DNA from: Candidatus Omnitrophota bacterium
Lineage (GTDB): Bacteria; Omnitrophota; Gorgyraeia; 2-01-FULL-45-10
Direction of reading: 5' to 3'
NCBI GenBank assembly: GCA_028699255.1
Contig: JAQVUX010000002.1
Span: forward strand, 107,520-171,519
DNA length: 64,000 nt
In this document: positions 36,766-54,275 of the stretch, in pieces
Layout: each line of letters starts with the position of its first letter
Numbering within the stretch: the first letter of the stretch is position 1
Program-made: the position numbers and the translations under genes
The notes under the pieces: model-generated
Database searches by the model: none
What the model was told of the DNA's origin: nothing
What the model saw: only the letters and a program-made list of their open reading frames with translations

Positions 36766-39759
36766 ATGAGAAGAATAAATTTCCTAATCGTTTGTGCGCT
36801 TACCTGTATTGTTATTGCCGGAGTTACGGAGCTCTGCTTTGCTTCTATCCCGCCTACTACTATAATAACTGCTAAACTGGATGCTAATCCCGCCGAAGAC
36901 ATTATCATTAACTTCGGTTCTCAACACGGTCTTTGGGTATATTCCAATAACTCTGTCTGGTTTCACCTTCACCCTATAAGTCCTAAGTCAATTACCAGAG
37001 CTGATCTTGATGGCAATGGCATCGATGATCTCGTGATCGACTTCGGTTCTCAGTACGGCGTCTATGTGTATAGCGATACCGGTGCATGGACTCAGCTTCA
37101 TATTTTTACCGCAAGCTCCATTACCGCCGCCGATCTTGACGGCAACGGTAAGGACGACATTATAATCGACTTTGGTCCCCAGTACGGCATCTATGTGTAT
37201 AGCGATACCGGTGCATGGATTCAGCTTCATACTTTAACCGCAAAGTCAATCACCGCCGCCGATCTTGACGGCAATGGTAAGGATGATATCATCGTAGACT
37301 TTGGTTCACAGTACGGCATCTATGTGTATAGCGATACCGGTGCATGGAATCAGCTACATAACTTCACCACAAAGTCTATCACCGCCGCCGATCTTGACGG
37401 CAACGGTAAGGATGATATCATCGTAGACTTTGGTTCAGAGTACGGCATCTATGTGTATAGCGATACCGGTGCATGGAATCAGCTACATAACTTCACCACA
37501 AAGTCTATCACCGCCGCCGATCTTGACGGCAACGGTATTGACGACATTATAATCGACTTTGGTTCTCAGTACGGCATTTGGATATATTACAACAACTCTA
37601 CATGGCAAAAATTACATGATCTTAGCCCATGGGCAGTGAATGTACCGCCGCCGCAATTCACGAATCTAACCGATAAGACCGTGGTCATAGGTAATTTATT
37701 ACAATTTACGTTAGAAGCTGACGGCTCCTATGTTCCTGCGGGTGAGCTTGCGTATTCGGTTGCAGGCCTGCCTCCGGATGCTTCGTTTGATGCCGCAAGC
37801 CGCACTATTTCATGGACGCCAACCCTATCCGATAAAGGGACCTACGACGTTACCTTTACCGTAACCAATGGCGCTACATCATCCACCAAATCTATCATTC
37901 TCTCGACTGTATATATAGAGGAAGCCTTGCTCACAAATGACGCAAGCATTGTGGGTAAACCGTCTATTTATGACGATAAAGTTATCTGGTCAGATAATAG
38001 AAATTCAAGCTACGATCTTTACCTGTATGATATCTCAGGCCATAGCGAATCGCTCCTAAATATTGATACCGCGGCAAAATTTAAACCTGCGATATATGGA
38101 GATAATATTGTATATATCGATCAGGACTTCAACCTTTATATGTACGATCTCTCCACAACCCAGAAGACTGAAGTAACAACGCTTTCTACAGCCGATAACG
38201 GACCGGCTATTTATAAAAATAAAATAGCATATGTAGCTGACCCCGTGAATATCTGTATATATGATATACCAACCGGACAAGTAACTGCGATAAGCGACGC
38301 AAGCTCAAGCCATGGATCTCTGAATATGGATGAAAATTCTCTCTTTTGGGAAAGTAGTCGATTGGATTCCGGCCAGAATGTTTATGATATATACACCTAC
38401 GACCTTCAAGCCGGAACTAAATCTATGGTATTAAATAATCTTGCTTTATGCGGATTTGCCGCATATGGAGATAAGATATCCTGGGCTCAATCAACCGGAC
38501 TATGGATATACAATATCTCTACAAAAGAGGGGATGCAGTTAACGCAAAATTCAGGCTCTATCAATCTTGCCATGTATGAGTATAGGATCGTATGGGCGGG
38601 AGATGATAGCCAAATCCACCTTACGGCCATGACTTTCTCGCCTCGTATTATCTCTGCCGATTGTGAGTGCGGCTACACAGGCTATAATGTCAATATAACC
38701 GGCACAAACCTTGGGTATAGCCAGGGTTCTTCAAATATTGAGTTAGGTGGTAGTGTTGTAAATGCGGCCATAACATCCTGGTCAGACACTTCCATTGTCT
38801 GCGTAATACCGTTTAATACTGATTTATCAGGTAATCAGACGCTGAAAGTAAATACTCCAGGGGGTAAGAGTAATGGTGTTGAGATAACCTTGCAGGATTT
38901 ATCAAAGCTTCCCACAAAACCGACTCTTAACACTTTTTCTACTCCTACCAGTAATACGGTGCAGACATTGTCAGGAACTAAAGATATTAATACCTCTATA
39001 TGGATGAACGGAGTTGAAAAAGTCCCCATAGATAGCTTTACTACATGGTCTGTCTCTATAACGTTGGCAGAGGGTCAAAACAATATAAACGTCACAGCGA
39101 AAAACTCCACAGGCGGAGAGAGTCAATCCGCTCTCGCGAGCATCTTACTTGATACAACCCCTCCCACAACCCCAGTAATGATAGATGATGGAGCTACTAC
39201 TAATTATATAAGCACTTTTCATGCTGTTTGGTCGGCTCAAGATGCGGAGTCTGGAATTATCGAGTATCGATATCGCATAACGGATGGCACTAATGGCGGA
39301 TCGGTAATTCGTGATTGGACATCAACGGGTGTAGTGCCGGAGGTGACGGCTACGGAATTATCTCTATCCAAAGGTCATACGTATTATTTCAGCGTCCAGG
39401 CCCGGAATGGCGCGGGGTTGTGGAGCTGTATAAGTTCGAGCGGCGGCGGTACATTAATACAGGCCGCGCCGGATATAATATCGATCAGCCCGGTTGCGGG
39501 AAGTATTCTGGACTCTGAGAATACGGTGGATTTTAATATAAACGCTATCGACCAGGAAGGGGACGCCATCCAGTATAGGATATTGGTTGACGGCGAGATT
39601 GTAAGCGATTGGAATAGCGCTCCAAATTTTAGCTGGCAGATGACGTCGCCCGAATCCGGCGCAAGGCAGGCTACGGTTTATGTTAAAGATACATGGGGCA
39701 ATGAAAACTCCGGTTGTGTATCGATATACCTGGCCAGAAAGGCATTGGAATTACCATGA
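36766..39759 (+). CDS. Giant secreted surface protein: 6x FG-GAP-like 42-aa repeats, beta-propeller (YD-type) repeats, IPT/Ig-like domains
   Basis: Signal peptide MRRINFLIVCALTCIVIAG; ADLDGNGKDDIIIDFGSQYGIYVYSDTGAW x6; IPT-like GYTGYNVNITGTNLG. Confidence 0.75.
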   Translation: MRRINFLIVCALTCIVIAGVTELCFASIPPTTIITAKLDANPAEDIIINFGSQHGLWVYSNNSVWFHLHPISPKSITRADLDGNGIDDLVIDFGSQYGVYVYSDTGAWTQLHIFTASSITAADLDGNGKDDIIIDFGPQYGIYVYSDTGAWIQLHTLTAKSITAADLDGNGKDDIIVDFGSQYGIYVYSDTGAWNQLHNFTTKSITAADLDGNGKDDIIVDFGSEYGIYVYSDTGAWNQLHNFTTKSITAADLDGNGIDDIIIDFGSQYGIWIYYNNSTWQKLHDLSPWAVNVPPPQFTNLTDKTVVIGNLLQFTLEADGSYVPAGELAYSVAGLPPDASFDAASRTISWTPTLSDKGTYDVTFTVTNGATSSTKSIILSTVYIEEALLTNDASIVGKPSIYDDKVIWSDNRNSSYDLYLYDISGHSESLLNIDTAAKFKPAIYGDNIVYIDQDFNLYMYDLSTTQKTEVTTLSTADNGPAIYKNKIAYVADPVNICIYDIPTGQVTAISDASSSHGSLNMDENSLFWESSRLDSGQNVYDIYTYDLQAGTKSMVLNNLALCGFAAYGDKISWAQSTGLWIYNISTKEGMQLTQNSGSINLAMYEYRIVWAGDDSQIHLTAMTFSPRIISADCECGYTGYNVNITGTNLGYSQGSSNIELGGSVVNAAITSWSDTSIVCVIPFNTDLSGNQTLKVNTPGGKSNGVEITLQDLSKLPTKPTLNTFSTPTSNTVQTLSGTKDINTSIWMNGVEKVPIDSFTTWSVSITLAEGQNNINVTAKNSTGGESQSALASILLDTTPPTTPVMIDDGATTNYISTFHAVWSAQDAESGIIEYRYRITDGTNGGSVIRDWTSTGVVPEVTATELSLSKGHTYYFSVQARNGAGLWSCISSSGGGTLIQAAPDIISISPVAGSILDSENTVDFNINAIDQEGDAIQYRILVDGEIVSDWNSAPNFSWQMTSPESGARQATVYVKDTWGNENSGCVSIYLARKALELP
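36990..37620 (+). repeat. Tandem 126-bp coding repeats (5-6 units, up to ~95% identical)
   Basis: e.g. 37321-37440 versus 37441-37560 nearly identical; encode the FG-GAP-like units. Confidence 0.8.
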
Positions 39760-40829
39760 GTAATAAAATATTTGCCATAATTATAGTTATAGCTTTATCG
39801 TTAACTCCACGTGTTTTTTGTGCTGAGGAAACTGTAAAAACCGAAGATGTATCGGCGACCATCGAAACGAATACGGAAGAAGTCGTTTCCAAAAAGAGCG
39901 CGGCGGCTATGGTCAAATCCTCGGCCTCGGCGGTGGCGTCTATGGCGGCGGGCGAAGACGTAAGTTCCGGCTCCGTCGGAGGAGGCGCTTCGCTGTCACC
40001 GCTTTTGAGCGAATCATTTCAGACGGATCTTGCCACCGGCAGTGCGACTGCCAATATTCCGATAGTCGTGCCGCCCGGTAGAAAGAATATGCAACCGTCG
40101 ATAGCGATCTCCTATTCCAGCAATAACCCCAATGGAGTGTGCGGCGTCGGCTGGGGGCTTACAACCTCCAGCATTCAGCGCTCGACCAAGAATGGAACTC
40201 CAAAATACGATAGCACGGATACATTTGTTTTTGCTTCAAGCGGATCGAGCGGCGACCTCGCCCTGATCGATGCCGAGAATAATGAATATCGTCAGAAGAT
40301 AGAGACGGGTTTTATGAAGTATGTCTTTGATCCTGCCGGCTTAAAATGGACGGTATGGGATAAAGCCGGCACTAAATATGTATTTGGCACTTCCGTCGAT
40401 TCGAGGATCGTGGGTGACGACGCTACGAAAATATTCGCGTGGTTTCTGGACAGGGTCGAAGACGTATATGGCAATACGGTGTTATTTACTTATGAAAAGG
40501 ATAGCGGGCAGATATATCTGGCCGGAGCTATTTATACCTCCAACTCTACTGTGACTCCGGCGCTCGCCGCGGATAAAGCGGTGAGCCTTGTTTACGAAAC
40601 CGGCAGGGCCGATATTGCCTATAATAACAGAGCCGGGTGGCAGATAGCTACCGCCAAACGATTAAAAGAGGTACAGGTTAAAGTCGATGGCGTTCTCGTG
40701 TGGCGGTATGCGTTCAGTTACTCGACGAGCGCGGATACGACACGCTCGCTCCTGACGCAGGTTACGCTTTTCGACGCGGCCGGCAACAGTCTGCCTCCGA
40801 AGAAATTTACGTATCAAACGATCGAGTAG
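39756..40829 (+). CDS. Stand-alone SpvB / TcB-N-terminal domain protein (secreted)
   Basis: Signal peptide; ANIPIVVPPGRKNMQPSIAISYSSNNPNGVCGVGWGLTTSSIQRSTKNGTPKYD matches the SpvB hallmark; ATGA overlap with upstream gene. Confidence 0.8.
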   Translation: MSNKIFAIIIVIALSLTPRVFCAEETVKTEDVSATIETNTEEVVSKKSAAAMVKSSASAVASMAAGEDVSSGSVGGGASLSPLLSESFQTDLATGSATANIPIVVPPGRKNMQPSIAISYSSNNPNGVCGVGWGLTTSSIQRSTKNGTPKYDSTDTFVFASSGSSGDLALIDAENNEYRQKIETGFMKYVFDPAGLKWTVWDKAGTKYVFGTSVDSRIVGDDATKIFAWFLDRVEDVYGNTVLFTYEKDSGQIYLAGAIYTSNSTVTPALAADKAVSLVYETGRADIAYNNRAGWQIATAKRLKEVQVKVDGVLVWRYAFSYSTSADTTRSLLTQVTLFDAAGNSLPPKKFTYQTIE

Positions 40830-40835
40830 ACAAAA

Positions 40836-43800
40836 ATGCGAAAATTTATTTCCATAATCCTGGTATTTGCCCACGTTGCGCTTATACTGCCTCTTCCCGA
40901 GGCGCACGCGATGGAGAGCGCCAATTTTAAGGTAACGGAGAGCGCCGTATCCTCCGGAGGCGGCTCAAACGGCGGTATTGGGGCGGATATCGCTTATTCA
41001 AATGCCGCGGAACCGGCTACGGGTAATGCGGAGAGTTCAAATTATAAGGCCTCGCTCGGCTACATAAATGTTATCGCCTCGAACCCGCCGATATTCAAAT
41101 CATTGATACCGGACGCGAATATGAGAGCGGTGTGGGATAAGGCTCAGCCATGCGCGACGACGATATCCCTCGATGGGTATTTTTCCAGCCCCGATAATTT
41201 GCCCCTTACATATATAGTAGAAGGTAACTCGCGGATATCTGCGGTTGTTAATCCCGTAACGCACGTCGTCAATTTTTCGCAGGGCGATGATTTTTCCGGT
41301 GCCGAGGCCGTCAGGTTCGTTGCTGTAGATGCCTCAGGCAATAGAACCGTGAGTAATTTTGTGATGCTTGTGGTGAAAGGGGCCGGTAATAATCCTCCGG
41401 TGATCCATCCGATCAGCGACATTACGGTGCGCGAGAACGAACTCGTTCAGGTCGCGCCGACGGTATTCGATCCGGATGGCGATGCTCTGACTATAACTTA
41501 CAGCGCGCCCTTAAACGATACGGGAAGCTGGCAGACGTCCTACAAAGACTCTGGTGCATATAAAATAACGGCTACCGTTTCGGACGGGACGCTAAAAGCT
41601 TCTTCCGCTTTTAATATAACCGTAAAAAATGTGAACAGGCCTCCGGTTATCGATACGATTGCCGGCGTAACGGTCAACGAAGGTGATGTCGTCAAATTAA
41701 ACGTTACAGCCCGCGATCCTGATGGCGATAATGTCACCATAGATTATCCGAATCCTCTGGATAGCGACGGAAGCTGGCAGACGACGTACAAAGATGCCGG
41801 GTCATACAGTTTTACGGTTACCGCATCGGACGGCGATTTGAGCTCGACGAGCGAAGCCAATGTTACCGTAAATCCCATCAACGCGGCGCCTCTGGTCCGG
41901 CTTTACTCCGATAAGACCAGCCTATCTGCGAATGAAGAATTCACGGTTTATCTGCTTGCGCAGGATCCCGACGGCGACCAATTGACGCTGACACTCAAAA
42001 AGGATGGGAGCGCGATATCCGGTTGCGAAAACATTGTTCTCGACGCCCAGACTTTTACAAAAACTATATCCATATCGAACGCGGGAAGTCACACCATCGA
42101 CGCTGTAGTTACGGAAACCGGCGTTTCGGGCGACGCGAATACCGCCTCGGCTACGCTTAAGATAAACGTCGATGAAAATTCCTCGTCGGACGTATATTTC
42201 CCGATATCCGGAGATTTTAACGGTGACGGCTTAACGGATCTCGGCTATTTTAACAGGGCGCTCGGGATATGGAAGGTTCAGTTGTCCAAGGGTGACGGTA
42301 CATTTGGGTCTGTCGAATACTGGATAGCGAGCGGATTCGGTAATAACGACAGCTATTGCTATCCTATGACGGGTGATTTTAACGGTGACGGTAAGACTGA
42401 CGCGGGTTTTATACGCGTGCCTACTTCAGACGGTGCCGGCTCGTATGTTCGGCTTGCGTTATCAAGCGGTACGGCCTTCAGCGCCCAAACAACCGACTGG
42501 CGCAGTACGAGTGCCGGGACACTGATGAGCGACTGGCATTACACGACGTTTACCGGCGATTTTAACGGCGACGGCATAAGCGATACCGGCCAGGTTCATT
42601 ACGAGGAGGCGAACTATCGTTACGTTGGGCTTACCGGCGCGAATGGCGCGGTATCGGCGATGGAAAATTGGATAAAAGGCGGAAGCCATGTTTCGACAGG
42701 TGAAATATCGCCCATCGCGGCCGATTTTAACGGCGATGGATTAACGGACGCGTGTTTTTTCAGGAAGGCATACGGCACATGGACTGTATGCCTCTCGAAG
42801 GGCGACAGGTTTGGCGATACGACTACCTGGCTAACGGTATTTGGCACGGATAAAGATCCCGTCCTGGCCGATTTTAACTGCGATGGCCTGACGGACATCG
42901 GTTATATGGTAAAGGAAGATTCGCAGTGGTCGGTAAAATATGCCATATCGGACGGAACGAAGTTTAATCTTAAGAACGGCGAAGCGTATACCTACAAGAC
43001 GCTTATATCCGATTCTGTAAGCGGTACATTCATATCCGGCGATTTTAACGGCGACGGCCTTTTTGATATAGCGGTATTTAATAAGGATACGCGTGAATGG
43101 ACGGTTAAACTACACCATTCGAAATATCCGGATCTGCTCATCGGAATAGATAACGGTATGAGCGGTACGACCACGATAACTTACAAGGATTCGGCCGTAT
43201 TCGATAATACCGGCGACGACGGACTGCCGACCCTGCCATTCTCGATACGCGTCGTGACGAGCGTGACCCAGTCGGACGGTCTCGGAAGTAATTACACGGC
43301 GAATTATTTTTACCGCGACGGCGCCTTCGACTCCGTCCAGCGCGAGTTCCGCGGGTTCGGTTACGTTAAAGTAATAGACGCCGAAGGAAGCTACAAAGAG
43401 ACGTATTTTAACCAGGATGACATATATAAAGGAAGGCCGTCGAAAGAAGTGGTGCGTGATAAGTATAACAATATTTACTCGCAGGTTTTGTATAACTGGC
43501 AGGATCGTAAATTATTCAGCGACGCGGTTGATTATCCATACCTTCTGGACAAAACCTCAAATGCTTATGATCCGGTTACCGGCGCGACTAAAAGCGCGAA
43601 AACTATATACACCTATGACGACTATGGCAATGCGGTAAATGTCAGGGAAGAGGGTTTCCTCGATACGGCAGGAGATGAGCAGGAGGCGCAGATCACGTAT
43701 TATTACGACACCGCAAACTGGATACTCTCAAAGCCGGTTGAGAGCAGGGTGAAGGACGCCGCGGGCAATGTGGCCGCGGCGACGAAATACGAATACTATT

Positions 43801-46800
43801 CGGACGGCGCCCTGAAGAAAGAGGAGCGATGGCTCGGGCGCGCGGGCGGCGCTCCGTCGTGGGGATCAGGCGACAACCCGACGGCCGAGTTTACTTACAG
43901 CGCTGTCGGAAACGTCGAGACGGTTAAGGACGCCCGCGGCAGTGTTACCGCTACCGCATACGATGCCACAATGACGTTCCCGGTAATAGTTACCAATGCG
44001 CTCGGCCATACCCAGCAATTTACCTATAATAAAGCCACCGGCAAGATACTTACTTCCACCGACCCGAATGGCCAGGTGTCGTCTTCGCAATACGACGGAT
44101 TCGGCCGGTTATATCATGTAGCCGGGCCGGGCAATATCTCCGAGGTTGCGTATACTTACGATCTGGCCTCAACCCCGACCAGGATAATATCCGCTACAAA
44201 AACGGCGGACGGAAGCTACGCGAAGGCTTTTAGCTTTATCGACGGCCTTGGCCGACAGATACTCTCGCGCTCCGAAGCCGAATATAGCGGCGCCGCGAAA
44301 CACATCGTTTCGGGCGAGGTGCGTTACAATTCGCGCGGTCAGGTTGTGCGTAAATACCTGCCTTATTATATCTCTGTCCCAGCCCCCGAAGACTTGTATA
44401 TGCCGCCGCAGAACGCGACGTGTTATGTCGCGTATGAGTATGACGCCATGGGACGTCTGGTCAAGACGATCCGTCCGGATAATAAGGTGAGTTACACCAT
44501 ATATGGCGTGAATAAGCTGGAAGCGGTAAACGAGAACGGCCAGCGCGCCGCGCAGACGAAAGACGCTTATGGCAGGATAGTCGAGGTTCAGGAAGACATG
44601 GGCGATATCACGAATTACGTTTATGATATGCTCGGCAATCTTACCGATACTTACGACAGCGCCTCAACGCGCAATCACGTCCATATGGAATACGATACTT
44701 TAGGGCGAAAAATATTGATGACCGATCCCGATATGGGCGGATTCGCCGGCAAGAGCTGGCAATATTATTACGACAGGGCAGGCAACCTCGTCAACCAGGT
44801 GGACGCAAAAGGGCAGAGCATAACTTTTCAGTATGATGTCATTAACCGACTGGTTAAAAAATGGGGACTGTCCCCGCAGGGGGCTGTCCCCATTTTTTCC
44901 GTTGATTATTTCTACGACGACTCCTCTAAGCCGAACTGCATCGGAAGGCTGTCGAGCGTTACAGATCCAAGCGGTTCGACGGAATTCTTTTACGATATTC
45001 TTGGCCGTGAGATAAAGACCACAAAAAATATAGGCACTTCTTCATATTCCGTGGAGCGCTCCTATGATTCGCTCGACAGGCTCGTTACCGTTAAATACCC
45101 CGACAGTACTGTTATTGCCTACGTATACAACAAGCAGGGCGGGATCGCTACAGTTACGGGCGAGCAGGGGGCTTCTTATGTTTCCTCGGTAAGTTATAAT
45201 GCGAACGGCCAGATAGAGCATATAGTGTATGGCAACGGTACCTCGACCGATTATGCTTATGATCCTTATAATTTCCGGCTCGATCAGCTGAAAACTTTCG
45301 ATCCGCAAAAAACGGCTATACAAAATCTTGCTTATAATTTTGATCCTATCGGAAATGTAACCTCGATCCAGGATAGCGTAAATACCAATACGCAATCTTT
45401 TCAATATGACAATCTGAACCGTTTGATACAGGCGACAGGCAATAGTTACGGGCAGATAAATTATACTTATGACTCTATCGGCAATATTCTTACTAAAGGC
45501 GCCATCAGAATGGAATACGGCGCCAACGCCGGAGCGCACGCGGTTACCGCGTATACATTAAACGACGTACGAAAAACCATAGTTTACGATCATAACGGCA
45601 ATATGACTGCGAAAGGCAACAGTAGTTTCGAGTATGATATAGAGAATAGGCTTAATAAAGTAATGGTCGAAAAAGGCGGCGAGCTCTTCGATCTTTCCCT
45701 CAATCTTGCCGTCGGATGGAATTTCTTCTCGCTTCCCGGATTTATCCCGAACACAGCCGGCAAGATCAAAGATGTGCTCGCTTCGATAGACGGGAAATAC
45801 GACCAGGTTTCGACGTACGATCCGGTTACGGGTAAGTGGCTCCACTACGTCGGAGATGAAAAATTCAACCAGTTCGACAAGTTCGAGATCGGCATTGGAT
45901 ACCTCATATATGTAAAAGAGGCGTGCACTTTAAGTTTGAGCGGATCGTTCCCGGCTACCGCCCAGGTCAGCCAGTTAAAGACCGGTTGGAACCTGGTGTC
46001 CGCGCCCACGACGTCCGAGATCGAGCCTTCCGAAGCGTTCCGTAACATAACCTACGATTCTATCGTCGAATATAACGGCACGGAATATATCCATGATCCG
46101 GCGACGCTCAAGAAAGGCAATGCCTACTGGCTGCATGTAACGAGTGACCAGGCGTGGACTGTGCCTCTGTCGCAGGTCGAAACTACCTACTCTTACGACG
46201 GCGATGGTGGAAGAGTTTTACGAACTTCCCCGTCATTGATTACAGATAACCTCGGAGGTTGCGCCGCAGCAGATAACCTCGGAGGTTGCGCCGCAGGCGC
46301 ATCCTCCGAGGTTGGCAAAGGTCAAGTCACCGTCTATGTCGGCTCCTCTTACGAAGCCGAAGGCCCTGCCGGCCAGTCACCCGACAAGATCACAAAGTAC
46401 ATCTACATGGGCTCGACACGCATCTGCTCGGTCGAGACGTCGTTGCGAGCCGCCGAAGGGGGCTCCTCGGGGGTGGTTAAGGCTTACTACTACCACGCCG
46501 ACCATATCGGCTCATCCAACGTCGTTACCGACGAAACCGGTAGCGTCGTGAATATTCTCGAATATTCGCCTTTCGGCGAAGTATCTCGCAACACCGGTAA
46601 TTACTCGACAGATAAGCGCTTCACTGGTAAGATATACGACGAAGGTTCCGCTCTTTACTATTACGGGGCACGTTATTACGACCCCGAACTCGGACGATTC
46701 ATCACGGCTGATACAGTTATTGCTTATCCATATGATCCCCAGTGTTTCAATAGATATTCCTACGCTCGAAATAATCCCATAGTCTACATCGACCCATCGG

Positions 46801-47699
46801 GACACTTCTGGTGGTTTATAATATGGGCTATATGTCAGGTCATATCGGCTATAGCTGCCGTTGTATCTGCGGTATGTACAGTCGCAAGTATGATTAGTAG
46901 CGCGGCGGGTAATCAGGCGTTAGCTAATACGTTTAGTTCCATTGCCCAAATAGCTGGTTGGGTTAGCATAGGGGCTGGGTTGACTGCCATAGGTGCGGCT
47001 ACCGCCGCCGAATCTGCCGCAGCCGGTGTAGCGGCCAACACATCGCAAAAGGTTGTTAGTGAAACGACTATATATGTAGTGAGAAAAAGTTCCGAAAATT
47101 CAGTCGAGATGGGTTTATTTTATGTGTCACATGAAGTGCCAGCGGCTATTCAAAGCAGTGCAGTAAGCGCGGTTGGGTCACTCGTTGCATCAGGAGTAGG
47201 GGCGGGGAGCGCCGTGATAAATAGTGCTATGTCAGGAGGGTCAACAGCAGGAAACGCTTTTGGTAATGCAAATGCACCCGGTTTTTATAAAGACCTTTAT
47301 CCAGGCCAATATCGAACACAACTAAGTGCAGGGGAGATTGGAATCGGATACAAAGGGGCTGGAATTTTTTATCATACAGGACTAGAAGCAAAAAGCATAT
47401 CAGGCGAAAGCGCCATAATAGATTTTAATAGAGCACCGGGTGCAAATAATCTGGACACATTATTAGGTAAAGACGTTCCTGGCAAATTCGGTGGCTCCGA
47501 AAATTATCAATTTTATTTAGTTGTAGATAATAATTCAACCAAAGTTAATGCATTTTTTGACATAGCTGCAAAACTTCATAATACGGATCATTCATACAAT
47601 TTATATGGCACAGGGAAACCATTTAATTGCTATGAAGGTCGTGATTGGGTTTTGGAGCAGTTGAAAATTAAGAATAATGTAAGGTGGCGGAATCAATGA
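40836..47699 (+). CDS. Tc-toxin BC-like Rhs polymorphic toxin: cadherin-like domains, FG-GAP propeller, TcdB mid-N, YD/Rhs repeats, Rhs core (DPxG), novel C-terminal toxin domain
   Basis: Own signal peptide; GDFNGDGLTD x7; REFRGFGYV (mid-N); YxYDxxGN repeats; YYYHADHIGSSNVVTDETG...ARYYDPELGRFITADTV...NPIVYIDPSGHF; then ~300-aa hydrophobic/Gly-Ala-rich + unknown domain. Confidence 0.85.
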   Translation: MRKFISIILVFAHVALILPLPEAHAMESANFKVTESAVSSGGGSNGGIGADIAYSNAAEPATGNAESSNYKASLGYINVIASNPPIFKSLIPDANMRAVWDKAQPCATTISLDGYFSSPDNLPLTYIVEGNSRISAVVNPVTHVVNFSQGDDFSGAEAVRFVAVDASGNRTVSNFVMLVVKGAGNNPPVIHPISDITVRENELVQVAPTVFDPDGDALTITYSAPLNDTGSWQTSYKDSGAYKITATVSDGTLKASSAFNITVKNVNRPPVIDTIAGVTVNEGDVVKLNVTARDPDGDNVTIDYPNPLDSDGSWQTTYKDAGSYSFTVTASDGDLSSTSEANVTVNPINAAPLVRLYSDKTSLSANEEFTVYLLAQDPDGDQLTLTLKKDGSAISGCENIVLDAQTFTKTISISNAGSHTIDAVVTETGVSGDANTASATLKINVDENSSSDVYFPISGDFNGDGLTDLGYFNRALGIWKVQLSKGDGTFGSVEYWIASGFGNNDSYCYPMTGDFNGDGKTDAGFIRVPTSDGAGSYVRLALSSGTAFSAQTTDWRSTSAGTLMSDWHYTTFTGDFNGDGISDTGQVHYEEANYRYVGLTGANGAVSAMENWIKGGSHVSTGEISPIAADFNGDGLTDACFFRKAYGTWTVCLSKGDRFGDTTTWLTVFGTDKDPVLADFNCDGLTDIGYMVKEDSQWSVKYAISDGTKFNLKNGEAYTYKTLISDSVSGTFISGDFNGDGLFDIAVFNKDTREWTVKLHHSKYPDLLIGIDNGMSGTTTITYKDSAVFDNTGDDGLPTLPFSIRVVTSVTQSDGLGSNYTANYFYRDGAFDSVQREFRGFGYVKVIDAEGSYKETYFNQDDIYKGRPSKEVVRDKYNNIYSQVLYNWQDRKLFSDAVDYPYLLDKTSNAYDPVTGATKSAKTIYTYDDYGNAVNVREEGFLDTAGDEQEAQITYYYDTANWILSKPVESRVKDAAGNVAAATKYEYYSDGALKKEERWLGRAGGAPSWGSGDNPTAEFTYSAVGNVETVKDARGSVTATAYDATMTFPVIVTNALGHTQQFTYNKATGKILTSTDPNGQVSSSQYDGFGRLYHVAGPGNISEVAYTYDLASTPTRIISATKTADGSYAKAFSFIDGLGRQILSRSEAEYSGAAKHIVSGEVRYNSRGQVVRKYLPYYISVPAPEDLYMPPQNATCYVAYEYDAMGRLVKTIRPDNKVSYTIYGVNKLEAVNENGQRAAQTKDAYGRIVEVQEDMGDITNYVYDMLGNLTDTYDSASTRNHVHMEYDTLGRKILMTDPDMGGFAGKSWQYYYDRAGNLVNQVDAKGQSITFQYDVINRLVKKWGLSPQGAVPIFSVDYFYDDSSKPNCIGRLSSVTDPSGSTEFFYDILGREIKTTKNIGTSSYSVERSYDSLDRLVTVKYPDSTVIAYVYNKQGGIATVTGEQGASYVSSVSYNANGQIEHIVYGNGTSTDYAYDPYNFRLDQLKTFDPQKTAIQNLAYNFDPIGNVTSIQDSVNTNTQSFQYDNLNRLIQATGNSYGQINYTYDSIGNILTKGAIRMEYGANAGAHAVTAYTLNDVRKTIVYDHNGNMTAKGNSSFEYDIENRLNKVMVEKGGELFDLSLNLAVGWNFFSLPGFIPNTAGKIKDVLASIDGKYDQVSTYDPVTGKWLHYVGDEKFNQFDKFEIGIGYLIYVKEACTLSLSGSFPATAQVSQLKTGWNLVSAPTTSEIEPSEAFRNITYDSIVEYNGTEYIHDPATLKKGNAYWLHVTSDQAWTVPLSQVETTYSYDGDGGRVLRTSPSLITDNLGGCAAADNLGGCAAGASSEVGKGQVTVYVGSSYEAEGPAGQSPDKITKYIYMGSTRICSVETSLRAAEGGSSGVVKAYYYHADHIGSSNVVTDETGSVVNILEYSPFGEVSRNTGNYSTDKRFTGKIYDEGSALYYYGARYYDPELGRFITADTVIAYPYDPQCFNRYSYARNNPIVYIDPSGHFWWFIIWAICQVISAIAAVVSAVCTVASMISSAAGNQALANTFSSIAQIAGWVSIGAGLTAIGAATAAESAAAGVAANTSQKVVSETTIYVVRKSSENSVEMGLFYVSHEVPAAIQSSAVSAVGSLVASGVGAGSAVINSAMSGGSTAGNAFGNANAPGFYKDLYPGQYRTQLSAGEIGIGYKGAGIFYHTGLEAKSISGESAIIDFNRAPGANNLDTLLGKDVPGKFGGSENYQFYLVVDNNSTKVNAFFDIAAKLHNTDHSYNLYGTGKPFNCYEGRDWVLEQLKIKNNVRWRNQ
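46243..46313 (+). repeat. Exact 27-bp tandem duplication followed by a 17-bp-stem hairpin, inside the Rhs ORF
   Basis: CAGATAACCTCGGAGGTTGCGCCGCAG x2 (46243-69, 46270-96); AACCTCGGAGGTTGCGC cgcag GCGCATCCTCCGAGGTT pairs at 16/17 positions. Confidence 0.7.
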
Positions 47700-48103
47700 T
47701 TCCTTATGACTCTTGGATAAATAAAAAGCGATTTGGACGATTTACACTTTTATTGAGCCCTGTTTATTTTATAACCGCTACCTATCAAGTGTCTATGTAT
47801 ATTATATCAGCTGAAATTCGTAAATATGGAATTAGTCTATTAGTTTTTCCATTTGCACTTTTTCTTGTGCTGGTTGGAGTTGTCCGGGTATATTTAAGTT
47901 ATTTACTTCTTAGAAATGCTTGCGAAGAATGGATGATTAAATTAATTTTTGTTTTTCTTTGCGCTATTGAAATTTTTTTTGGATTTTTTGCAGGATTGAT
48001 TCTTATTGCTGAACTTGGGTTAATTGGCAATATAATAGTTATGCTATTTGTGATTTATTATGTATATGCATTATTGTTTTTTAGGAATAAAATAGAGAAT
48101 TAG
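47696..48103 (+). CDS. Putative immunity protein (4-TM membrane protein) for the Rhs C-terminal toxin
   Basis: Overlaps the toxin stop (ATGA at 47696); RBS AAGGTGG; ~4 hydrophobic helices; AT-rich. GTG 47684 is an alternative start. Confidence 0.5.
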   Translation: MIPYDSWINKKRFGRFTLLLSPVYFITATYQVSMYIISAEIRKYGISLLVFPFALFLVLVGVVRVYLSYLLLRNACEEWMIKLIFVFLCAIEIFFGFFAGLILIAELGLIGNIIVMLFVIYYVYALLFFRNKIEN

Positions 48104-48109
48104 ATTTTG

Positions 48110-48142
48110 TAGACACTTTACATAATGCCATACATCAAAAAG
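48110..48142 (+). promoter_or_regulatory. 33-bp conserved upstream motif (copy 1)
   Basis: TAGACACTTTACATAATGCCATACATCAAAAAG; 28/33 identical to the copy at 50238-50270. Confidence 0.5.
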
Positions 48143-48153
48143 GAGACGTTGCC

Positions 48154-49443
48154 ATGAAAACCAGGTTTAGCTTGATAGCAGTATTTTTATCTGCCGCGAT
48201 TTTGCTGTTTGCTTCCACAGCCTCTGCCGCGATCCCGCATCTCATGAACTTTCAGGGCAAGGCAACGGATAAGGCGGGAGCGCCGTTAAGTGGCACATAT
48301 AATCTCACGTTCAGGATATACGATGCCGAAACCGGAGGCGCCGCGAAATGGTCCGAGACCCAAACCGGCGTTCAGATAACGAATGGTATCTTCCAGGTTC
48401 AATTAGGCAGTGTTACCGCACTAACCCTGTCTTTCGATGTGCCATACTGGATATCGCTCGAGATCAACACAGACGGCGAGATGTCTCCCCGGACGCGTCT
48501 TGCATCGGTACCGTATGCGTATGCGGCTCAATCTCTATCTGAAGCACCAGTCATCCCATTCTACAGAAAGGGCTTCGATATTGTCTCTATAGATTTTAAC
48601 TCAATTAAAATCTCAGCCGGTGTTATGGACCTGGTGGGCAAAATGTTTGCGTCTACTATATATTCGGATCCGTTGCGACTTGAATGCCTGACAGAGCCTA
48701 AAAACCAGGACTGGATTCACGGATCAAAAACCCCCAACTCTGTGGCTTACGTTTATGCATTTAATAATGCCGGCCAGATAGCATTTAAATTTTCGGATGA
48801 GGCCCCTACTCTATCCGATTATTATGGGAATACCGCACAACAGCCTTTTTTGTACAAGCGATACCCCGAAACGAGCGAAGGAGTATATTATCGATATATT
48901 GGCCAAATACAGTTGGATGATGCAGGTAATCCGGGGCTTATTAGTAACATCGAGCAGATTGCGTCCACTGTGCGGCATCCGACATCTTATTATGTTTATG
49001 GAACAGCGAGTATATATCACAAAAACGATTCATTGGTATCCGGTGCGATCGGGTCTGTTCATCCGATCTATACAAAAAAGAAAGAGACGAAGATCCTTGC
49101 GCCGCTTTCTAATGTTACCATTAATGTGTCGTTCAAAATCACAGCATCATCTAACAATGGGCCAATGTATCATCAGCTATATAAAAACGGCACGGCTATT
49201 CCTGGAACTGAAGTTTTGTCTGAATCCGGTTTTAACGGGGTTTATGCATATGATGTTACTGGCGTGAATCAGGGTGATTTGATTCAGGTATATTTGGCTG
49301 CAAAATGGAACTCGGCCATCAATCCTACGGTAAGCGAGCTTCGGATAAATGGCGCGGCGATCAACTATGACAACTTTCCCAACATGGGAGCCGAAACGAA
49401 GTTTTATATAGATTCGGGCAGTTTCGGGCAGAGTAATTTATAA
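48154..49443 (+). CDS. Secreted protein with conserved N-terminal domain (IPHLMNFQGKATD...) of unknown function
   Basis: Signal peptide ending ASA; no recognisable catalytic motifs. Confidence 0.6.
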   Translation: MKTRFSLIAVFLSAAILLFASTASAAIPHLMNFQGKATDKAGAPLSGTYNLTFRIYDAETGGAAKWSETQTGVQITNGIFQVQLGSVTALTLSFDVPYWISLEINTDGEMSPRTRLASVPYAYAAQSLSEAPVIPFYRKGFDIVSIDFNSIKISAGVMDLVGKMFASTIYSDPLRLECLTEPKNQDWIHGSKTPNSVAYVYAFNNAGQIAFKFSDEAPTLSDYYGNTAQQPFLYKRYPETSEGVYYRYIGQIQLDDAGNPGLISNIEQIASTVRHPTSYYVYGTASIYHKNDSLVSGAIGSVHPIYTKKKETKILAPLSNVTINVSFKITASSNNGPMYHQLYKNGTAIPGTEVLSESGFNGVYAYDVTGVNQGDLIQVYLAAKWNSAINPTVSELRINGAAINYDNFPNMGAETKFYIDSGSFGQSNL

Positions 49444-49531
49444 TTCGAATGGTGATAGGGGGGGCGAAAGATATGGTTTTAGTGAAATAAAAACTATCTA
49501 TAATACCAACTTACGGAGAAGGGGCAAGCGT

Positions 49532-50221
49532 ATGTGTCATGAATCTTGCATTAATTTTGGAAAAAGAATTATTAAAAAAGAATATGTTGAGAATAAATTT
49601 GTGCTGGAAGTAGGCTCTATGGATATCAATGGTTCTCTGAGATCTTTCATAGAATCGTTTGCCCCTGTTGAATATATTGGGGTTGACATGCAAAAAGGAC
49701 CCGGGGTTGACCTGGTGTGCGCCGCCGAAGATATTGTAAACAAATTTGGACGAAACAAATTCGATTTAGTAATTTGCACAGAAGTCTTGGAACATGTGAA
49801 AAATTGGAAAAAAGTTATTTGGAATTTGAAGCATGTTGTAAAGCCAGGAGGAATAGTGGTCGTAACTACCAGATCAAAAGGGTTCCCGAATCATAGCTAT
49901 CCTTTTGATTTTTGGAGATATGAGATTTCTGACATAGAACATATATTCGCTGATTTTGATATTAAGGTCTTGGAAAAAGATACCGGTGCGCCAGGAGTCT
50001 TTCTTTTAGCTAAAAAAACTATTTTTTTAACTAATGGCAAGGCTGTCAGCATTGACCTTTACTCAATGCTGTTGGGAAAAAGATGCTCGATAGCGGCAAT
50101 CTATTTTTACACTTTTCCTATGCAAATGAAGGTTTATTTTAGGCATCCTTTGAAGTTTTTTACGATGATATGGTGTAGTTGTGTAAAATTATTTGTTGCG
50201 GCAAGCCGTTTTTTTAAATAA
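49532..50221 (+). CDS. Class I SAM-dependent methyltransferase
   Basis: VLEVGSMDINGS (motif I), DLVICTEVLEHV (motif II/III). Confidence 0.7.
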   Translation: MCHESCINFGKRIIKKEYVENKFVLEVGSMDINGSLRSFIESFAPVEYIGVDMQKGPGVDLVCAAEDIVNKFGRNKFDLVICTEVLEHVKNWKKVIWNLKHVVKPGGIVVVTTRSKGFPNHSYPFDFWRYEISDIEHIFADFDIKVLEKDTGAPGVFLLAKKTIFLTNGKAVSIDLYSMLLGKRCSIAAIYFYTFPMQMKVYFRHPLKFFTMIWCSCVKLFVAASRFFK

Positions 50222-50237
50222 ACAAAATAAATAAAAG

Positions 50238-50270
50238 TAGACACTTTATATAACACCATACAGCTAAAAG
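50238..50270 (+). promoter_or_regulatory. 33-bp conserved upstream motif (copy 2)
   Basis: TAGACACTTTATATAACACCATACAGCTAAAAG, upstream of the lipoprotein gene. Confidence 0.5.
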
Positions 50271-50291
50271 CGATGGTCGAGAAAGCGTAAT

Positions 50292-50924
50292 ATGAAAAGA
50301 GCGTTATTTCTAATCTTATCAATCCTTATGCTATCAGGATGTGCAAGCACCTTAAGTAATGTTAAAGAAAATGAGCCATTAATCGTATCATCAGATAAAA
50401 GCGTTGTTTTTGGCAAGGTCTCATTCTATATGCCCTCTGGCGCCGAATGTAAAGCCATGTTCATAAATGTGAAGACCAATAAATTTTATGAAATTCAAGC
50501 AAATGACGGGCCTTTTATAAGATATACGTTCTTTGAGAAGAATAAAAATTTTAAAGGCTATGTCGAAAAGACTTTTTATATTGCGCTTCCTCCAGGAGAC
50601 TATCGCTTCACTACGCTACGCTTCATGGAATATAATCAAAATGTCAGCGATGTTTATCCAAAGATAGACTTTTCTGTTTCGCCAAACGCAATCGTGTATA
50701 TTGGAACTCTTAAGCTTACACCTAAAGATATGCATAACTATATTCTATTTAGCGCAGGTCATGTAAATATAGCGATATATGATGAGAAAGATAACGCAAT
50801 TAAAGAATTAAAAGAAAAATATCCTAGCTTGAATGGCGAGGTCGTTACCAGTTTAATGAAGATACTTAGTAATAAAAAAGATAAAGGCGGCACAACAACA
50901 CAAGAGAACAAAGGGGCGGAGTGA
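50292..50924 (+). CDS. Lipoprotein, unknown function
   Basis: Signal peptide + lipobox LSGCAST; AT-rich. Confidence 0.6.
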   Translation: MKRALFLILSILMLSGCASTLSNVKENEPLIVSSDKSVVFGKVSFYMPSGAECKAMFINVKTNKFYEIQANDGPFIRYTFFEKNKNFKGYVEKTFYIALPPGDYRFTTLRFMEYNQNVSDVYPKIDFSVSPNAIVYIGTLKLTPKDMHNYILFSAGHVNIAIYDEKDNAIKELKEKYPSLNGEVVTSLMKILSNKKDKGGTTTQENKGAE

Positions 50925-51496
50925 AAAAAGTCGCTTATTTATTTACTGCAATACTATTTATTAGCGGGTGTGCGTGGCAAAGGATCCCGGCAATGCCCAC
51001 TTACAATGTTTCAAAAACAATTCCTATAAAGGTTGGCGTAGTATTGGGAGACACTTCCGCGTCTTTCGAGAATGGTTACGGTGTGGTAAAAAATTTGAAA
51101 GAAATGAGAGTGTTTGATGAAATTATTTTTCCGTATGAGAAAAACAATCAAGTTGATGGTATTCTCAAAATGGATATAAATGGCGGTTGGAACTCATCCG
51201 CGCTGTTCGAGTCTGCAAAAGGTACTCTTATCGGTCTTTCTATGGGTACTTTGGGTATGGCGATAGGTTCAAGCGGGACAGGTACCCACGATGCGATTAT
51301 TACACTTAATAAAGGTTCGATAGAAGTGGCGAGATATTCAGTGCATATTAAAACTACTGTGGAGTGTGGGATAAAAGCAGATTTAAGTGACGTTGACTAT
51401 AAAGCTAAAGGTCTCCAACACCGCAAACTGGCCGTTGAGATTGCCAAGCATATAAGCGACGATTATTCACGTATCGTAGAAGAATTTAAAAAATAG
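50921..51496 (+). CDS. Lipoprotein, unknown function
   Basis: Signal peptide + lipobox ISGCAWQ; overlaps upstream gene by 4 nt. Confidence 0.6.
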   Translation: MKKVAYLFTAILFISGCAWQRIPAMPTYNVSKTIPIKVGVVLGDTSASFENGYGVVKNLKEMRVFDEIIFPYEKNNQVDGILKMDINGGWNSSALFESAKGTLIGLSMGTLGMAIGSSGTGTHDAIITLNKGSIEVARYSVHIKTTVECGIKADLSDVDYKAKGLQHRKLAVEIAKHISDDYSRIVEEFKK

Positions 51497-51529
51497 AGAC
51501 TATCTATATTGCGCCAGTAGGGGGGCAAG

Positions 51530-52549
51530 ATGAATAAAGTTATAGTCAGGATTTCAATAATACTGACAGCGGTATTTTTATTGCGTGCTACGTGTAGTGC
51601 CACTGAGATTACAAAAATACCTAGTGATCCAAATTATATCAAGTTTTTAGAATATGGCTCACAAGGAAAATTTGAAGATGCGGAAAAAGAATTAAAACTA
51701 ATAAAGGCAAAACAATATGAAATGTTAATACATATTAATCTTAATGTGATTAAGAGCATATTTGATAAAAAAATCACAGAACAGACTGCAATGCATCTAT
51801 TTAATGGGTCTTATTATCTTGAAAAAGGTGAAACAAAAAAAGCAATCGCAGAACTTAACGAAGCTATTGCAGCTAATCCCAACTATTCAGAAACTTATCG
51901 CAAAATGGGCATTGCTTATTCTGCTGATGGTAAATTTGGGAAGGCAATATCTGAATTAACCAAAGCTATAAAAATCGATCCTATGAATGAATATCTTTAT
52001 TTTACTCGCGGAAGTATTTATTTTAAAGATGGTTATTATAGTAAAGCAAGCGATGACCATACTAAAGCGATAGAGATAGCACCAAATAACGCCAAATTTT
52101 ATGAACAAAGAGCTGTTTGTTATTATATGAAAGGGAAGTATGATAAAGTAATAGATGATTTTAGTAAGGCAATATCAATCGACCATAGTGATCCCAATGT
52201 CTATATACAGCGAGGTGTTGCGTATAGCATGAAAAAGCAATACAACAAAGCTAAAGATGATTTTGAGAAGGCGATGAAAATAGATCCTATTAATAGTTTC
52301 GCATATTTAAACCGCGGGATTTTAAATTTTGTGGCATTAAATGATGATGCTGCATGCACAGATTTTAAAACTGCCATAAAATTAAAGCTTGATAATATTT
52401 TGGCATATTTGTGGTTGGCAGATACATATTATCGACAACATGATTACGATAAAACATGGGAAACTGTTAACAAGATATTGGAATTGAAGGGGAAAGTTAA
52501 TCCCAGTTTTCTTGATAAATTGAAAAAGGAATCCGGTAGAGAAAAATAA
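51530..52549 (+). CDS. Secreted TPR-repeat protein
   Basis: Signal peptide; >=7 TPR units (AxxxxxKAIxxxPxxxxxYxxRG pattern). Confidence 0.75.
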   Translation: MNKVIVRISIILTAVFLLRATCSATEITKIPSDPNYIKFLEYGSQGKFEDAEKELKLIKAKQYEMLIHINLNVIKSIFDKKITEQTAMHLFNGSYYLEKGETKKAIAELNEAIAANPNYSETYRKMGIAYSADGKFGKAISELTKAIKIDPMNEYLYFTRGSIYFKDGYYSKASDDHTKAIEIAPNNAKFYEQRAVCYYMKGKYDKVIDDFSKAISIDHSDPNVYIQRGVAYSMKKQYNKAKDDFEKAMKIDPINSFAYLNRGILNFVALNDDAACTDFKTAIKLKLDNILAYLWLADTYYRQHDYDKTWETVNKILELKGKVNPSFLDKLKKESGREK

Positions 52550-52617
52550 AAGGTGATATTTCCGAACATTGGCAGGGGACACGCTACTTAATTAGTTTCA
52601 TAACGATGGTATGATAC

Positions 52618-53802
52618 ATGGACACAGATAATATAAAAAATAGGAAGCCCAGGATAGGAATCGACGCGAGGATACTTTCTCAGCCAATGAACGGCGTGGC
52701 GAGGTATGCTGTCAATCTCCTGAAGGGCCTTCAGCGGTACGATAAATACGAGATATGCCTCTTTACCGATACGCCCATCCTCGACGAATACAAACCCTGC
52801 ATATCCGGCCACAGGGTGATACTCTTCAGTAATAAAATATTTAAAAAATACTGGAAGAATTGGGTGTTGCCCGTCCAGCTTTTAAAGCATAAGATACAGC
52901 TGTACCATGCTTTGTGGGATAAGGGCGTGCCGCTCATCTCAGCTGTTCCGTCTATTATGACTATACATGACCTATATGCTATCTCCCGCGACAATAGTAC
53001 CATCAAAAGAAAAAAGAAGATCGCCAGATACGTCAATTATTTTCTTGAAGCCTTGGTTTCGAAAAAGATATTCACCGTATCCGAATATTCAAAAAAAGAG
53101 ATAGTTACGAAATTGCATGTTAGGCCCGGGAAGGTGTTGGTGGCTTATCCGGACTGCGATAGGGAATATATAGAGAAGGCCGCCGCATTAAAGGCCGCCG
53201 GTATGGAAGAGCCATATTTTATAAGTATCGCGGGAAGACTGGACGATGTAAGAAAGAACGTGCTCTTTCTTATAAGGTCTTTTTGCAAGTTTACGGCTAA
53301 TGGCGATCCGAAGAGGGCGCGTTATAAGCTGGTGGTGGTCGGCCATTGCGATAAAGAGGGCGAAGCGTTTAAGAGACTGACTAAGCTTATAGATTCCTGC
53401 GGTCTTAACGACAGGGTCATATTGACGGGATACCTCGACGATGCGGCTCTCTATTCGATGATTAAGCGGGCAAGGGCCATGATATTTACTTCTCTATTCG
53501 AGGGGTTTGGCATACCGATACTGGAGGCGTTCTTTCTGGGTACTCCCGTTATAACCTCCAATACTTCGGCTCTGCTCGAGGTCGCGGCGTCTAATAGCGC
53601 TCTACTGGTAAATCCGCTGTCGGAGGACGAACTGTCCGCGGCGATGACTGCCTTGAGCGAAGACGATAGCCTGCGGAACAAGCTTGCCGCAAATGGGAGG
53701 AGGCGGTTGGCGGATTTTGACTGGAAACTCACTATGGAACGGATAACCGCGGCGTATGACGAGATATTGCCTCCGACGCCTTGCATTATCCGGAAGATAT
53801 GA
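52618..53802 (+). CDS. Glycosyltransferase family 4 (GT-B, group 1)
   Basis: C-terminal GT1 motif EGFGIPILEA..G.PVITSN. Confidence 0.8.
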   Translation: MDTDNIKNRKPRIGIDARILSQPMNGVARYAVNLLKGLQRYDKYEICLFTDTPILDEYKPCISGHRVILFSNKIFKKYWKNWVLPVQLLKHKIQLYHALWDKGVPLISAVPSIMTIHDLYAISRDNSTIKRKKKIARYVNYFLEALVSKKIFTVSEYSKKEIVTKLHVRPGKVLVAYPDCDREYIEKAAALKAAGMEEPYFISIAGRLDDVRKNVLFLIRSFCKFTANGDPKRARYKLVVVGHCDKEGEAFKRLTKLIDSCGLNDRVILTGYLDDAALYSMIKRARAMIFTSLFEGFGIPILEAFFLGTPVITSNTSALLEVAASNSALLVNPLSEDELSAAMTALSEDDSLRNKLAANGRRRLADFDWKLTMERITAAYDEILPPTPCIIRKI

Positions 53803-53835
53803 TATACTTTCACTGCCGACGGTACAGGAGACCCG

Positions 53836-54261: not shown

Positions 54262-54275
54262 ACCGTCCGTAAATC

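Follow-up and report, generated by a model that had tools for sequence, protein, structure and literature searches.

In a 64,000-nucleotide stretch of the genome of a Candidatus Omnitrophota bacterium (contig JAQVUX010000002.1 of assembly GCA_028699255.1, positions 107,520 to 171,519 of the forward strand; hereafter the window), a large open reading frame (ORF) for a Tc-toxin-like Rhs protein contains, at 46243-46313, a 27-bp sequence repeated exactly in tandem and followed by an inverted arm that closes a long hairpin. We consider it probable that this duplicated hairpin is an intragenic double palindrome, comparable to repetitive extragenic palindromic (REP) sequences and REPINs, which came to lie in a permissive loop of the YD/Rhs shell and whose left half was recently duplicated, probably neutrally. 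The repeat segment is an insertion relative to the homologous proteins, with the host ORF intact and in frame, and its core is that of a family of palindromes which is found in many phyla, survives in frame in other genes and flanks genes for REP-associated tyrosine transposases (RAYTs).

The duplicated hairpin and the loop that holds it

The unit CAGATAACCTCGGAGGTTGCGCCGCAG occurs twice back to back on the forward strand, at 46243-46269 and 46270-46296, and Tandem Repeats Finder (TRF) reports it with a period of 27, 2.0 copies, 100% matches and a score of 108. Each unit consists of five nucleotides (CAGAT), an entire left arm, the loop GCA and a final G, which in the second unit is the first base of the right, inverted arm. 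The left arm, AACCTCGGAGGTTGCGCC, thus stands at 46248-46265 and again at 46275-46292, while the right arm, GGCGCATCCTCCGAGGTT, occupies 18 nt at 46296-46313 and is complementary to either left arm at 17/18 positions (94%). The inverted-repeat scan pairs it with the second copy across a loop of 3 nt and with the first copy, 30 nt away, which is also its partner in the minimum free energy folds. The region folds as RNA at -49.8 kcal/mol (z = -6.55 vs shuffles) and as DNA with z = -7.2 on the forward and -7.5 on the reverse strand, and an extra inner stem, TGCGCC/GGCGCA, lies in the spacer of 15-16 nt between the two cores. The junction of the duplication (..GCAG|CAGAT..) shows no microhomology as read from the sequence, and its right breakpoint falls at the apex of the hairpin. 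An initial annotation of this DNA had described the exact 27-bp duplication, which the direct reading and TRF both bear out, together with a 17-bp stem paired at 16/17 positions; the hairpin is indeed present, but its stem is one base longer.

In the frame of the ORF, the repeat reads T-DNLGGCAAA-DNLGGCAAG-ASSEVGK (amino acids 1803-1828). The same annotation had placed it inside the Rhs coding sequence, which is correct, and immediately upstream of the Rhs core, which is not: it lies within the YD/Rhs shell, in a loop bounded by YDGDGGRV and TVYVGSSYE, and the RHS-repeat-associated core starts about 35 aa farther on, with YYYHADHIGSS. Measured between YDGDGGRV and xY[IV]GS, this loop has 37 aa here vs a modal length of 9 aa found in 15 of the 32 homologs, and its sequence is absent from all 32. 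Relative to the modal loop, there are 28 extra codons, SPSLITDNLGGCAAADNLGGCAAGASSEV, at approximately 46227-46310 of the forward strand, with boundaries inferred from the homologs. An AlphaFold2 model of residues 1561-1960 places residues 1802-1827 between two strands with no secondary structure and a confidence score (pLDDT) below 50, a low value that would also be expected of a segment lacking a counterpart in the alignment.

Other short repeats occupy the same loop in five homologs, for four of which the DNA was read. In L122/P0005, the loop contains CCGTCATTGCGAGGAACCGAAGGCGACGAAGCAATCTCC, a CGTC-type repeat of the form CGTCATTGCGAGG...GAAGCAATCTC, and L124/P0014 has a shorter copy of that repeat. 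The loop of L125/P0006 holds TGTCATTCCCGCGGAAGCGGGAATCCAG (GTCATTCCCGCGGAAGCGGGAATCCAG), which is one or two bases off the Neisseria NTS consensus CGTCATTCCCGCGMAVGCGGGAATCYRG (PMC11893778), and that of L123/P0001 holds AAAAATAGGGACTGTCCCC...GGGGACTGTCCCAATTTTT, of the GGGACTGTCCC...GGGGACTGTCCC type. The fifth, P0028, was compared as peptide only, and its KGLSPQGTVP is a signature of the GGGACTGTCCC type. These occurrences indicate that the loop tolerates insertions. The stretch CCGTCATTG (46230-46238, forward strand) is common to the window and to the start of the CGTC-type repeat of L122/P0005; past it the two sequences diverge, which suggests that the hairpin overwrote an older repeat of the CGTC type. 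Judging from this comparison of homologous DNA, CCGTCATTG is probably what is left of a repeat with a CGTC tag that stood here earlier, and the CGTC within it, 13 nt upstream of the stem, seems to belong to that older repeat.

Several conventional roles for the hairpin were considered and rejected. It is not an intrinsic terminator, as no T-run follows the stem and the terminator scan is blank at 46243-46313. On reading 46230-46330, no X XXY YYZ slippery motif was found that would indicate a programmed frameshift element, and there is no ATG or GTG suitably spaced (5-10 nt) after the Shine-Dalgarno (SD)-like GGAGGT that would indicate an internal start, the sole start-type codon being a TTG sharing the final T of GGAGGT. 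A search of the whole window against Rfam at gathering thresholds returned no family.

The ACCTCSGAGGT palindromes and their transposase

The hairpin in the ORF shares its 11-nt core, ACCTCGGAGGT, with the centre of a perfect palindrome at 25629-25663, ATTCGACCTCCGAGGT-GCG-ACCTCGGAGGTCGAAT, as had been noticed at the outset. The arms of the latter are 16 nt long (16/16 paired) across a 3-nt loop, and its fold has z = -6.3 as RNA and -8.1 as DNA vs shuffles. With arms paired at 17/18 and 16/16 positions and z from -6.3 to -8.1, both hairpins are short palindromic stem-loop units of the kind that make up REPs. Allowing at most one mismatch, ACCTCGGAGGT has 10 strand-matches at 4 places in the window vs 0.69 expected, and none of 100 shuffles reaches 10. 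The perfect palindrome is intergenic, starting 4 nt past the stop codon of a fabG-like gene and ahead of a co-directional acpP-like gene. REPs usually lie close behind an ORF (PMC3733652), and its location matches this placement, within about 20 bp downstream of an ORF and between co-directional or convergent genes; it is probably an ordinary extragenic member of the family just after a stop codon. A role as terminator was rejected for this copy too, with no T-run and a blank terminator scan.

The core is not restricted to the window. A scan of a 596-Gb collection, taking one genome per species, for the pattern ACCTCSGAGGT-N(1-30)-CCTCSGAGGT found such double palindromes at at least 120 genome loci, where our own arithmetic with uniform composition gives about 30 for the entire collection. 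Among the matches listed, the hosts are Chloroflexota, Desulfobacterales, Thiotrichaceae/Thiomargarita, cyanobacteria, Bacteroidota, phyla of the Candidate Phyla Radiation (CPR) and one Omnitrophica, and several contigs of one metagenome-assembled genome (MAG) often carry copies. One spacing accounts for 75 of the 130 matches listed. Alignment of 67 copies gives a 33-nt consensus, ARACCTCSGAGGTYTTNAARACCTCSGAGGTYT, with random sequence directly outside it; so sharp an edge marks the element as a discrete unit of insertion. The pattern is also present at 36 loci of the IMG/VR collection. One IMG/VR contig (L145) has seven ACCTCSGAGGT palindromes in 10.9 kb, after nearly every gene of a co-directional row, and L132 is similar.

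Copies of this family also reside within genes. Stop-free frames of at least 200 aa hold 34 of 122 copies, and the Pfam-confirmed genes around in-frame copies include those for MnmE (mnmE), PurL (purL), peptidase M1 (pepN), a NACHT NTPase and a hybrid histidine kinase; alignments to structures in the Protein Data Bank (PDB) show additional residues at the sites of these copies. The ACCTCSGAGGT core is free of stop codons in all six frames and is read as TSEV, DLGG or PRRS in unrelated proteins. Two earlier suggestions are thus supported: that the hairpin is an embedded miniature palindromic element, by its insertion relative to the homologs and by the in-frame copies in real genes elsewhere, and that the core belongs to a small dispersed family, although the ACCTCSGAGGT palindromes form a large one that spans many phyla and flanks RAYT-like genes. 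A literature search for the 11-mer and its neighbours found only irrelevant primer and oligonucleotide matches, and for the other repeat strings only a paper on Ssn nucleases and NTS (PMC11893778).

Clustering of the ORFs next to core copies yielded a small protein family that corresponds to the REP-associated tyrosine transposases (NCBIfam NF047646). Matches to NF047646 have E-values of 2e-9 to 4e-24, with a single member above the curated cut-off, and Pfam Y1_Tnp matches two. RAYT-like genes occur at five of the 120 loci listed. Flanking copies of the canonical ACCTCSGAGGT type accompany such genes in L014, L031, L177, L180 and L207, and the 33-nt palindrome stands 10-30 bp from the gene on both sides in L014 and L031. 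Some RAYT-like genes contain their own flanking palindrome in frame, as TSEVFKTSEV, at the same position between the HUH motif and the C-terminal half in three loci (L014, 3884-4546; L031, 24-739; L100, 7631-8000).

We fetched 80 metagenomic relatives of the RAYT and analysed the 61 with at least 100 bp on each side. A hairpin of at least 12 paired bases lies within 100 bp upstream in 41/61, downstream in 43/61 and on both sides in 34/61, vs 1/90 control windows taken at a distance of 400-500 bp. There are 13 exact CCTCSGAGG cores within 150 bp of the ends of RAYT genes and none in the 118.7 kb farther off. The flanking cores co-vary with the divergence of the transposases (AGACTTCSGAAGTCT; AGACCTCCGAGTTCT / AGAACTCGGAGGTCT; AGACCTCSGAGGTCT, all of them double palindromes), and relatives at 39-43% identity have double palindromes with the cores GGTGCAATGCACYT and AACCTTGWCAAGGTT. 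This layout of repeat, transposase and repeat is that of REP-RAYT-REP (REPtron/TIRtron) units. A function of the core in SD/anti-SD pairing is unlikely, given that the RAYT-flanking variants ACTTCSGAAGT and AACTCSGAGTT keep the palindrome and lose GGAGG, which argues against a function based on the SD sequence.

The origin of the hairpin and other repeats of the Rhs gene

RAYT/TIRYT-type Y1 transposases act on hairpins in single-stranded DNA. In the scenario that we favor, the element in the ORF would consist of two inverted arms, each with a self-complementary core ACCTC-S-GAGGT, in frame in a tolerant beta-hairpin loop, and elements with this core would be partnered with a single clade of Y1 (HUH) tyrosine transposases of the RAYT/TIRYT type, one of which may have placed the copy. 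Since the core is stop-free in every frame, copies inserted into permissive loops are retained as added peptide. The exact 27-bp tandem repeat would have formed later, when the five nucleotides, left arm and loop that make up the left half of the hairpin were copied a second time, probably through an error of replication or repair where the hairpin caused stalling, or through strand transfer mediated by the transposase. The copy in the ORF probably has no function of its own, and the insertions in unrelated housekeeping genes elsewhere (see also PMC3733652) likewise argue for neutrality.

A number of observations weigh against this scenario. Outside the 11-nt cores and the double-palindrome architecture, the window copies do not match ARACCTCSGAGGTYTTNAARACCTCSGAGGTYT, from which their flanks and spacers differ (the spacer of the intergenic copy is 3 nt, unlike that of the canonical 33-nt element), so that they would form no more than a divergent subfamily. 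Neither hairpin is directly bordered by GTAG or CGTC, the GTAG tag being absent. The 64-kb window has only two loci with the core, and the source genome is not among the genome matches listed. A query search matched no RAYT among the window ORFs, and no GIY-YIG match was found among them with an approximate YhbQ-like query. A scan of the metagenome collection for an exact hairpin of the ORF type (ACCTCGGAGGTTGCGCC-N-GGCGCAWCCTCCGAGGT) gave zero matches and revealed no second allele or site, no empty site and no 1x allele. Finally, with no microhomology at its junction, the duplication is not readily explained by simple slippage, which bears on the slipped-strand hotspot put forward in the initial annotation. 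On the other side stand the shared 11-nt core, the common architecture and a copy in an Omnitrophica genome (L093) with a similar layout of core and inner stem, ACCTCCGAGGT-CCGCAATCTTGCGG-ACCTCGGAGGT, which make it likely, though not proven, that the window copies belong to the ACCTCSGAGGT family.

The same divergence from the canonical element could instead suggest that the hairpin arose locally in a hypervariable loop, by fold-back or template-switch copying of the left arm followed by tandem duplication, with the shared 11-mer a matter of coincidence or convergence. The breakpoint at the hairpin apex and the near-perfect inverted arm do look like template switching, and the absence of the exact hairpin from the metagenome collection would be expected. 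However, a chance occurrence of the 11-mer in two hairpins is highly improbable given 10 strand-matches in the window vs 0.69 expected, this core characterises a large mobile family, the Omnitrophica genome L093 has the same layout of core and inner stem, and recognisable dispersed repeats occupy the same loop in homologs. We therefore think a local origin unlikely.

A selected function in cis is best considered together with the gene itself. The host ORF (40836-47699, forward strand, 2287 aa) encodes a Tc-toxin-like TcB/TcC (Rhs) fusion, as identified by domain searches and an SpvB-family gene upstream. It contains PKD/Big, FG-GAP and TcdB_toxin_midN domains, RHS repeats, the RHS core and a C-terminal domain without assignment; Pfam matches include RHS_repeat (3e-42), TcdB_toxin_midN (3e-21) and FG-GAP. 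The combination of TcdB_toxin_midN, YD/RHS repeats, an RHS core with a DPxG end and an upstream SpvB fits the BC component of an Rhs/Tc toxin, and the closest relatives are RHS repeat-associated core proteins of Candidatus Omnitrophota MAGs, at no more than about 60% identity.

Besides the duplicated hairpin, this gene carries a second in-frame double palindrome of 43 nt at 44856-44898, AAAAAATGGGGACTGTCCCC-GCA-GGGGGCTGTCCCCATTTTTT, which was found by the inverted-repeat scan and folding and encodes KKWGLSPQGAVPIFS. It bears A6/T6 tracts and resembles a bidirectional terminator, and its reverse complement, GGGGACAGTCCCC, conforms to GGGGWSAS, a motif of repeats found on the flanks of TIRYT genes (PMC3733652). 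In the Rhs homolog of L125, whose protein is 45% identical to the host ORF, 42/43 nt are identical at the same position (1820-1862), with flanks about 62-70% identical; the palindrome is thus far better conserved than its host gene. A third segment, CGTCGTTGCGAGCCGCCGAAGG at 46438-46459 on the forward strand, is a degenerate, half-decayed CGTC-type repeat in the next loop (SLRAAEGG...), before YYYHADHIGSS. At this position, several homologs have the intact CGTCATTGCGAGG...GACGAAGCAATCTC with the peptide SLRG..DEAIS (L124, 169-205; L125, 3350-3380).

Further repeats of the CGTC type were seen in the related genomes. The Rhs gene of L125 is split into two ORFs (2332-2470) exactly at a CGTC-type repeat, GTCATTGCGAGGAGGCACCGAAGG...GAAGCAATCTC (2466-2507), and its frame seems to have been broken by the insertion of the repeat. 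In L093, the CGTC-type GTCATTGCGAGGAGC...GACGAAGCAATC forms intergenic inverted dimers (130-215 and 7021-7165), several per 8 kb, and Omnitrophota genomes appear to be rich in this repeat.

Such repeats could be recombination or single-stranded DNA nuclease sites that delimit the exchange of the C-terminal toxin cassette, as NTS/dRS3 do at polymorphic toxin loci in Neisseria, or structures in the RNA at which translation or transcription would pause ahead of the toxin domain. The three repeat-derived segments in one 6.9-kb gene, vs one (the intergenic hairpin) in the other 57 kb, would fit such a role, as would the repeat-dense Rhs homologs L125 and L124, the repeats that five homologs carry in the very same loop, the recurrence of four repeat families in that loop, and the conservation of the palindrome at 44856-44898; in Neisseria, SsnA cutting at NTS hairpins modulates recombination (PMC11893778). 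Yet the hairpin in the ORF is unique to the host gene among the 32 homolog loops, which fits a recent accident. The consensus of Ssn-related motifs (SRM), HGTCWYN(0-2)YYVSBRHN(0-5)WNVSBRGN(0-2)RNCYNB, has no match on either strand of the window, where no nuclease or transposase gene was found, neither the ORF hairpin nor the intergenic one has a T-run, and no slippery site is present. We judge a selected function in cis to be quite unlikely. An extension of this idea, to which we would give an equally small chance, is that the C-terminal loops of the YD shell in Omnitrophota Tc/Rhs toxins are hot spots for unrelated hairpin families (ACCTCSGAGGT, GGGACTGTCCC, CGTC and NTS-like), kept as landmarks for single-stranded DNA nucleases or transposases that set the end-points of toxin-cassette recombination. 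The 42/43 identity at 44856-44898 would then reflect selection or repeated site-specific re-insertion, without shared ancestry.

Selection could also have acted on the protein, with the Cys-containing peptide DNLGGCAA(A/G) as its object and the DNA palindrome incidental. The ORF is intact and the duplication is in frame, 27 bp being a multiple of three. However, the peptide occurs in no homolog and is predicted to be disordered, the same core yields TSEV, DLGG or PRRS in unrelated proteins, and the identity of the two units at the nucleotide level, together with the near-perfect inverted arm, points to events at the level of DNA, which makes this reading very improbable. An assembly artefact, raised at first as something that would undo the observation, is scarcely credible: short tandem repeats beside hairpins can be mis-assembled (collapsed or expanded), but a Logan contig from run SRR22315503 (L001, 16,303 bp) matches 37508-53810 of the window with zero mismatches and keeps the 2x state, its reproduction by another assembler making an assembler-specific error unlikely, and the entire 71-bp structure fits in a single short read and leaves the ORF in frame.

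Other features of the region were noted in passing. Past DPxG, residues 1960-2287 of the host protein have no Pfam match, and a small ORF (47684-48103) overlaps the stop codon; the two are candidates for a toxin/immunity pair. A beta-rich domain of about 165 aa (residues ~1620-1785, ~45690-46190; pLDDT 80-96), common to Omnitrophota homologs and with no Pfam match, interrupts the YD shell shortly before the duplicated hairpin. The gene upstream of the SpvB-like gene contains a 129-bp tandem repeat (4.2 copies, 90% identity, 37036-37577), inside which the Logan contig begins at 37508, presumably where that assembly broke. Intergenic inverted repeats at 54275-54323 (a perfect 15-nt pair 19 nt apart) and 54414-54472 (a 28-nt pair, 82% complementary) are unrelated in sequence to the ORF hairpin.

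Significance and comparison with known systems

For the host protein, the duplicated hairpin probably has no consequence beyond the 28 residues that it alters in a disordered loop. It would be what ordinarily results when selfish palindromic repeats insert into a tolerant loop; events of this kind are known, and no new mechanism is called for. The ACCTCSGAGGT double palindromes are of broader interest as a family of many phyla, tied to one RAYT-like clade, for which no description was found in the literature searched. Their copies often stand in the reading frame of housekeeping genes, with consequences for the calling of genes and the annotation of proteins in MAGs, and Omnitrophota Rhs toxin genes collect such repeats at recurrent loops. 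If these loops are indeed targeted or functional, enzymes that process repeats would be linked to the diversification of polymorphic toxins.

The hairpin resembles intrinsic terminators in being a stable, GC-rich stem-loop, but neither it nor the intergenic copy has a T-run; A6/T6 tracts are found only at 44856-44898. A further parallel is offered by the NTS/dRS3 repeats and the SRM, hairpin repeats that are cut by the GIY-YIG nucleases SsnA (PMC11893778). These too cluster at variable or polymorphic loci, L125 has the NTS-like TGTCATTCCCGCGGAAGCGGGAATCCAG in the same loop, and the window retains CGTCATT just upstream of the ORF hairpin. Unlike them, the ORF hairpin has a different core, and the window gives neither an SRM nor a GIY-YIG match.

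Rickettsia palindromic elements (RPEs), reportedly described by Ogata and colleagues in 2000, are selfish palindromes inserted into protein-coding genes with the reading frame kept. They measure about 100-150 bp, belong to Rickettsia lineages and carry a CGTC tag. In both cases, selfish palindromic DNA would lie in frame and add a peptide to a tolerant surface region with the gene intact; here, the insertion is in an intact 2287-aa ORF and missing from the homologs (37 vs modal 9 aa). The window element, of about 57 bp before the duplication, is shorter and of other sequence, so that the likeness is one of analogy and not of membership in RPE-1 to RPE-8.

The nearest relatives appear to be the REP/REPIN elements and their RAYTs (PMC3733652; Bertels & Rainey 2011, PMC3116915). 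Di Nocera et al. (2013) described RAYT-like TIRYT genes flanked by repeats ("TIRtrons"), some of them double palindromic and some with GGGGWSAS (PMC3733652). The element in the window differs from REPs and REPINs in the missing GTAG, in deviating from the family consensus outside the 11-nt core and in having no transposase found in the window, and the canonical 33-nt form is much shorter than classical REPINs; the double palindromic repeats of TIRYT genes, however, also occur without GTAG/CGTC tags (PMC3733652). The likenesses are the doublet (REPIN-like) architecture, in which each arm of a palindrome is palindromic in its own right, an extragenic copy in the window just after a stop codon between co-directional genes, and a canonical ACCTCSGAGGT form that stands, in other genomes, on both flanks of RAYT-like genes. 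Intragenic REPs are known in several species, where the inserts are often dimers or groups that encode 20-30 aa in frame (PMC3733652), and the ORF copy is an exception of this known type to the usual placement. Both intragenic REPs and RPEs, and the double palindromes that flank RAYT/TIRYT genes, are thus known already, and what we describe is another member of this class, in an Omnitrophota Rhs toxin.

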